Shown piece by piece: positions 38,946-39,168 of a stretch of 64,000 nt of DNA (positions are counted from its first letter, which is position 1; every line of letters begins with the position of its first letter). Source of the stretch: Escherichia coli (GTDB lineage: Bacteria; Pseudomonadota; Gammaproteobacteria; Enterobacterales; Enterobacteriaceae); the NCBI RefSeq assembly GCF_046105845.1, contig NZ_CP151004.1. One strand, given 5' to 3'. Below the pieces are notes generated by a model. The model was not told the origin of the DNA. It made no database searches and saw only the letters and a program-made list of their open reading frames with translations. A program made the position numbers and the translations under genes.

Positions 38946-39050
38946 GTATCAGGAGATTAATATCAATAAAATTACTCTCGTTAACGTGGCGAGAGTAATT
39001 CCCCCAGACCTCATAAGCTAAGTTTTTTCGTGAAGGTTATTGCCAGATCC

Positions 39051-39080
39051 AAAAGCAAAAACCCGCCTTGTGGGCGGGTT
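39051..39080 (-). terminator. Rho-independent terminator of pheV
   Basis: Minus strand: aacccgcc cacaa ggcgggt followed by ttttgctttt. Confidence 0.6.
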
Positions 39081-39092
39081 CTTAAGAATTAG

Positions 39093-39168
39093 TGGTGCCC
39101 GGACTCGGAATCGAACCAAGGACACGGGGATTTTCAATCCCCTGCTCTACCGACTGAGCTATCCGGGC
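39093..39168 (-). tRNA. pheV: tRNA-Phe (GAA)
   Basis: Reverse complement reads GCCCGGATAGCTCAGTCGGTAGAGCAGGGGATTGAAAATCCCCGTGTCCTTGGTTCGATTCCGAGTCCGGGCACCA. Confidence 0.95.

Follow-up and report, generated by a model that had tools for sequence, protein, structure and literature searches.

An unoccupied pheV attachment site in the K-12 configuration on an Escherichia coli chromosome

In many pathogenic E. coli, the tRNA gene pheV carries a large inserted island, and the kps capsule region of extraintestinal pathogenic E. coli (ExPEC) is linked to the same gene. We analysed a 64-kb stretch of E. coli DNA (64,000 nucleotides of contig NZ_CP151004.1, hereafter the window) in which a phenylalanine tRNA gene lies between the end of a type II secretion operon (T2SS-beta) and yqgA. 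The features at this locus are as follows.

38409-38945, plus strand: gspM-beta (yghD), final gene of the T2SS-beta operon and the conserved chromosomal flank on the 3' side of pheV (NCBIfam PRK09731).
38946-39092, no strand: the gspM-pheV spacer, 147 nt, single copy (alignments; genome counts).
38970-39000, no strand: second hairpin, a perfect 11-bp inverted repeat with a 9-nt loop (repeat search; fold).
39056-39084, minus strand: intrinsic terminator of pheV, a 12-bp G+C-rich stem followed by UUUUUGCUUUUGG (terminator scan; fold).
39093-39115, minus strand: attB core, the 3'-terminal 23 nt of pheV (TTCGATTCCGAGTCCGGGCACCA), one intact copy only (window search; PMC11537424).
39093-39168, minus strand: pheV, tRNA-Phe(GAA), 76 nt, same sequence as K-12 pheV (ARAGORN; RF00005, 68.3 bits; alignment).
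39274-39981, minus strand: yqgA (DUF554), conserved, upstream of pheV (Pfam PF04474, E = 3.7e-67; annotations).
40374-42509, plus strand: speC, ornithine decarboxylase, an additional locus marker (NCBIfam PRK13578, 1419 bits).

The only tRNA that ARAGORN detects in the 64-kb window is tRNA-Phe(GAA) at 39093-39168 on the minus strand, and the Rfam tRNA model RF00005 matches it with E = 9.9e-15. The gene could in principle be pheU, the second tRNA-Phe gene of identical sequence, in which case any statement about pheV would be misplaced; pheU and pheV are one sequence, and at least two places in every genome match the query. However, the flanking genes, with yqgA, speC and nupG to one side of the tRNA and gspM-beta to the other, reproduce the annotated pheV context of K-12, E. 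coli NY1601 and O157:H7. We therefore rejected pheU, to which we assign next to no probability. On the 5' side of the tRNA lie yqgA and then speC, which identifies the gene as pheV; on its 3' side lies gspM. The open reading frame assigned to gspM (38409-38945) matches the NCBIfam model 'GspM family T2SS protein YghD' over its full length (178 residues; 404 bits against a cut-off of 352), is preceded by the frame encoding GspL, and corresponds in position to annotated yghD in both K-12 TOP10 and NY1601. It closes a complete T2SS-beta cluster at 22465-38945, comprising sslE/yghJ, pppA, gspS2/yghG and then gspC through gspM. The first-pass annotation had named the tRNA gene pheV and had placed its 3' end opposite gspM across 147 bp; the neighbours yqgA and speC bear out the name, and the gap between gspM and the tRNA 3' end at 39093 is exactly 147 nt.

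The spacer differs from that of K-12 (TOP10) by four substitutions and one indel, measuring 147 nt here versus 148 nt in K-12, with the 1-nt indel just past the gspM stop codon. Its open reading frames are short (20-47 aa) and none has support; only non-coding DNA separates the tRNA from gspM. An Rfam scan of 38700-39400 at E <= 1 returned the tRNA only, plus sub-threshold terminator-hairpin matches, and no known small RNA in the spacer. A promoter scan of the same interval called none, a result that has no bearing on the pheV promoter. The terminator of pheV folds with a dG of -18.1 kcal/mol (z = -4.4) and ends in a U-rich tail; it is unchanged in seven of eight aligned genomes, the exception being R32_14_1F, which has a single-base deletion in the stem.

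The spacer had earlier been described as holding just this tRNA terminator, which is wrong, because a second, perfect inverted repeat occupies 38970-39000. As RNA it forms up to 14 pairs (dG -16.1 kcal/mol, z = -5.9). This hairpin is invariant in all eight aligned genomes and stays with gspM in empty and occupied strains alike; the substitutions in the eight-genome alignment all fall outside both hairpins. On the plus (gspM) strand it has no U-tract and is not a canonical terminator, and a U/A-rich tail is present on the minus (pheV) strand. It has no counterpart among Rfam families, and covariation, sought across the eight genomes, neither supports nor opposes the structure, the columns being invariant. 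The hairpin could be functional, as a putative terminator (bidirectional or back-up) where the gsp-beta operon and pheV converge, or as a stabiliser of the 3' end of the gsp transcript; that this is so, or else that the T2SS-beta/sslE block is an ancient island fixed at pheV, we consider unlikely even when both are counted together.

Islands with P4-type tyrosine integrases enter the chromosome when their attP recombines with the 3'-terminal ~19-23 nt of the tRNA. This yields attL, a rebuilt tRNA with the integrase gene adjacent, and attR, a partial tRNA copy at the far end of the island; at pheV, the core TTCGATTCCGAGTCCGGGCACCA is thereby duplicated as attL and attR. The same 23-nt core is the 23-bp repeat listed by Nhu et al. 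2024 (PMC11537424) as attL/attB of GI-pheV islands. These authors define GI-pheV by intP4 at the tRNA 3' end together with a 23- or 19-bp attR, intP4 being the one gene that all such islands conserve. Searching the 64-kb window for the tRNA 3' 23-mer with up to three mismatches gave no second copy, with 0 expected by chance. A fuzzy search allowing up to four edits, which included all attR variants published in PMC11537424, returned the tRNA itself only, so no direct repeat of 19-23 bp marks a distal island boundary in the window. Elsewhere in the window, no stretch longer than 10 nt matches the tRNA 3' end; the 10-nt match lies within speC and is at chance level. Degenerate attR forms (the -1 deletion, the 19-bp imperfect repeat, the E2348/69 and SMS-3-5 forms, and 14- and 12-nt cores) were tried as candidates and rejected, since they recovered the tRNA itself plus short chance matches. 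A recognisable attR is present in 66% of described GI-pheV and absent from 34% (PMC11537424), and a missing direct repeat is therefore inconclusive on its own.

We then consider the integrase, for which our test consisted of one P4-type query, the pheV-island integrase of O157 SS52, and the annotation of the collinear NY1601 genome. With tblastn, the query found nothing better than E = 3.1 in the six frames of the 64 kb, and no intP4 adjoins the 3' end of pheV; the interval 38946-39092 holds neither an intP4-type gene nor an attR copy. The window is collinear with annotated NY1601 from 1293 to 64000, and over this stretch the NY1601 annotation lists no integrase. Its only mobile gene there is IS1397, which is absent from the window. 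Positions 1-1292, outside that comparison, contain two open reading frames without a recombinase domain in Pfam. The IS1397 copy of NY1601, the top match for junction queries, sits in the glcA-sslE intergenic region, where the window (21998-22464) has none; from 1293 on, the window has no counterpart of any insertion sequence annotated in NY1601.

Comparison with 5426 complete E. coli genomes placed this junction among empty and occupied sites. The contiguous gspM-spacer-pheV-yqgA junction occurs in 1526 of them (28%), and the spacer, which is single copy, in 2465. The difference implies that about 940 genomes keep the spacer and carry an island between it and pheV; in the remainder the spacer is lost or replaced, for example by kps. 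In all of the best 15 matches to an 8-kb query (36000-44000), the match runs across the junction and no island separates gspM from pheV; 14 are uninterrupted, and the other, H41, has an insertion of an ISVsa5 transposase. In the K-12 alignment and in five further empty genomes, the conserved flank (spacer plus gspM/yghD) directly abuts the tRNA 3' end. Occupied comparators diverge either at the tRNA 3' core or, with kps, right after the gspM stop. AR_0011 and R32_14_1F have, next to the spacer, a 22-nt attR equal to the tRNA 3' end minus one base (TTCGATTCCGAGTCCGG-CACCA) and, beyond it, island DNA, which in AR_0011 includes CP4-44-like genes such as cbtA/yeeU; this -1 variant sits exactly where the window has 39093-39115. 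NCTC 13148 keeps a longer tRNA fragment; the foreign genes beyond it include one for a type I restriction enzyme. The match to AH21E028, a blood isolate, ends 4 nt past the gspM stop and gives way to kps/neu capsule genes, and in O157:H7 SS52 a tyrosine recombinase gene lies 197 bp from the pheV 3' end. In the window, no foreign cargo separates pheV from the flank conserved in K-12, and the kps locus is absent.

These comparisons also bear on whether the genome does contain an island that the sequence lost when the assembly collapsed or was misjoined at the repeated tRNA core. GI-pheV is a frequent break point of draft assemblies, according to the abstract of PMC11537424, although nothing points directly to a misjoin here. 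An attL-attR misjoin would leave either hybrid flanks or the attR variant, whereas the junction is of the K-12 type found in 1526 complete genomes, and collinearity with NY1601 extends from 1293 to 64000. We regard an assembly artefact as very improbable.

A different question is whether the site was ever filled. Site-specific excision regenerates attB exactly, and an island once present could have been lost by precise, integrase/excisionase-mediated excision, leaving a scarless attB whose emptiness is secondary rather than ancestral. In R32_14_1F, whose spacer is the most similar of all (99.1% identical), the site is occupied, and PMC11537424 infers loss of the whole GI-pheV in some ST131 strains. 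Against this, the best 15 matches to the 8-kb query span the junction without an island, which favours long-standing emptiness. Since precise excision restores an identical sequence, a site never occupied and one cleanly excised are indistinguishable; by definition such an event would leave no trace, and present-day emptiness is unaffected by it. We think excision an unlikely history for this site.

It is also conceivable that the site received no recent island, but that the sslE-pppA-gspS2-gspC..M cluster represents an old island which became fixed next to the 3' end of pheV and no longer has an integrase or repeats. The cluster lies at the pheV 3' side and is partly deleted in K-12, and G+C content is 55-59% across gspE-M compared with about 50-53% in core genes beyond pheV. 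This shift is, however, modest; gspM is present in nearly all matched genomes, all of them E. coli, and the stretch from glcA to gspM has no attR, integrase or mobility gene. We consider an old fixed island unlikely.

We conclude that the site is a naive, unoccupied pheV attB of E. coli in the K-12 configuration, with a probability of roughly 95%. The strongest evidence is the gspM-spacer-pheV-yqgA junction, which is the K-12 empty-site arrangement (four SNPs and one indel) common to 1526 of 5426 genomes. What decides the matter is contiguity with the conserved flank together with the absence of intP4 beside the tRNA. The first-pass annotation had stated that this strain has no island at pheV, and had proposed looking for integrase genes and for a second copy of the pheV 3' end. 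The K-12-type junction and the lack of intP4 and attR support its statement; neither search found its target in the window, whether by tblastn (best E = 3.1) and the NY1601 annotation for the integrase or with up to four edits across 64 kb for the repeat. At this unoccupied attB, an intact pheV is followed directly by its own intrinsic terminator, the conserved 147-nt spacer and the gspM/yghD stop. The lack of attL/int or attR products means that no GI-pheV/PAI-pheV or kps region lies between pheV and gspM, and the single intact core would leave the site a competent target for future integration. This competence for P4-type integrases is predicted from the identity of the 23-nt core to the published attL.

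An empty pheV attB is already known and is an ordinary state in E. coli. The value of the result lies in describing the strain, which has no GI-pheV and no pheV-linked kps capsule region; it raises no new question. An empty pheV is a free landing site for islands with P4-type integrases, and it points weakly to a commensal or environmental lifestyle.

Elsewhere in the window, we noted several features unrelated to the attachment site. A gene cluster between yghR and yghO (1996-11064), also present in NY1601, encodes a polysaccharide-flippase-like protein, a hypothetical protein, a YtfJ-family protein, LptF/LptG paralogues, a serine-palmitoyltransferase-like aminotransferase (annotated spt), an acyl carrier protein, an NAD epimerase/reductase and a fatty acyl-AMP ligase; together these resemble a set for lipid (sphingolipid-like) biosynthesis and export. 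Upstream of yghR, outside the NY1601 comparison, a 237-aa open reading frame (447-1160) matches no Pfam family at E <= 0.001. The yggL-yggN intergenic region (47741-47898) holds a G+C-rich palindromic repeat of ~150 nt (GGGGAGAGGGTTAGGGTGAGGGG ... CCCTCACCCCGACCCTCTCCC), whereas the corresponding position of NY1601 carries a REP-like sequence, so that one repeat element has replaced another at this single intergenic site. Between yggM and hemW (51076-53911) are three genes for a TRAP transporter. The 8-kb query that contains it is at least 80% covered in only 1462 of 5426 complete genomes, and the segment appears variable. Best identities to any of the 5426 genomes were 97.9% (36000-44000) and 98.9% (50000-58000), and a window-specific 31-mer has no exact match among GTDB species representatives. 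The lineage is poorly represented in genome collections, which leaves the verdict of emptiness unaffected.

Set beside known systems, the window has the chromosomal target of GI-pheV and PAI-pheV, the P4-type integrase islands of PMC11537424, in its 23-nt core. It lacks their intP4, attR and cargo modules, which occupied comparators carry outward from 39093 or 39115. Among 66 reference genomes, Nhu et al. found GI-pheV in 41 and none in 25; it was present in all pathogenic strains but in only 6 of 23 non-pathogenic ones, with an attR of 23 or 19 bp. The group 2 capsule locus kps, which lies next to pheV in ExPEC, is likewise absent from the window, whereas AH21E028 has ABC-transporter and neuB genes after gspM. 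With the K-12 pheV locus (yqgA-pheV-yghD), the reference empty site, the window shares gene order, orientation, tRNA, terminator and second hairpin. The two differ in that gspD-K are missing from K-12 and its gspL is truncated, whereas the window retains the whole T2SS-beta operon.
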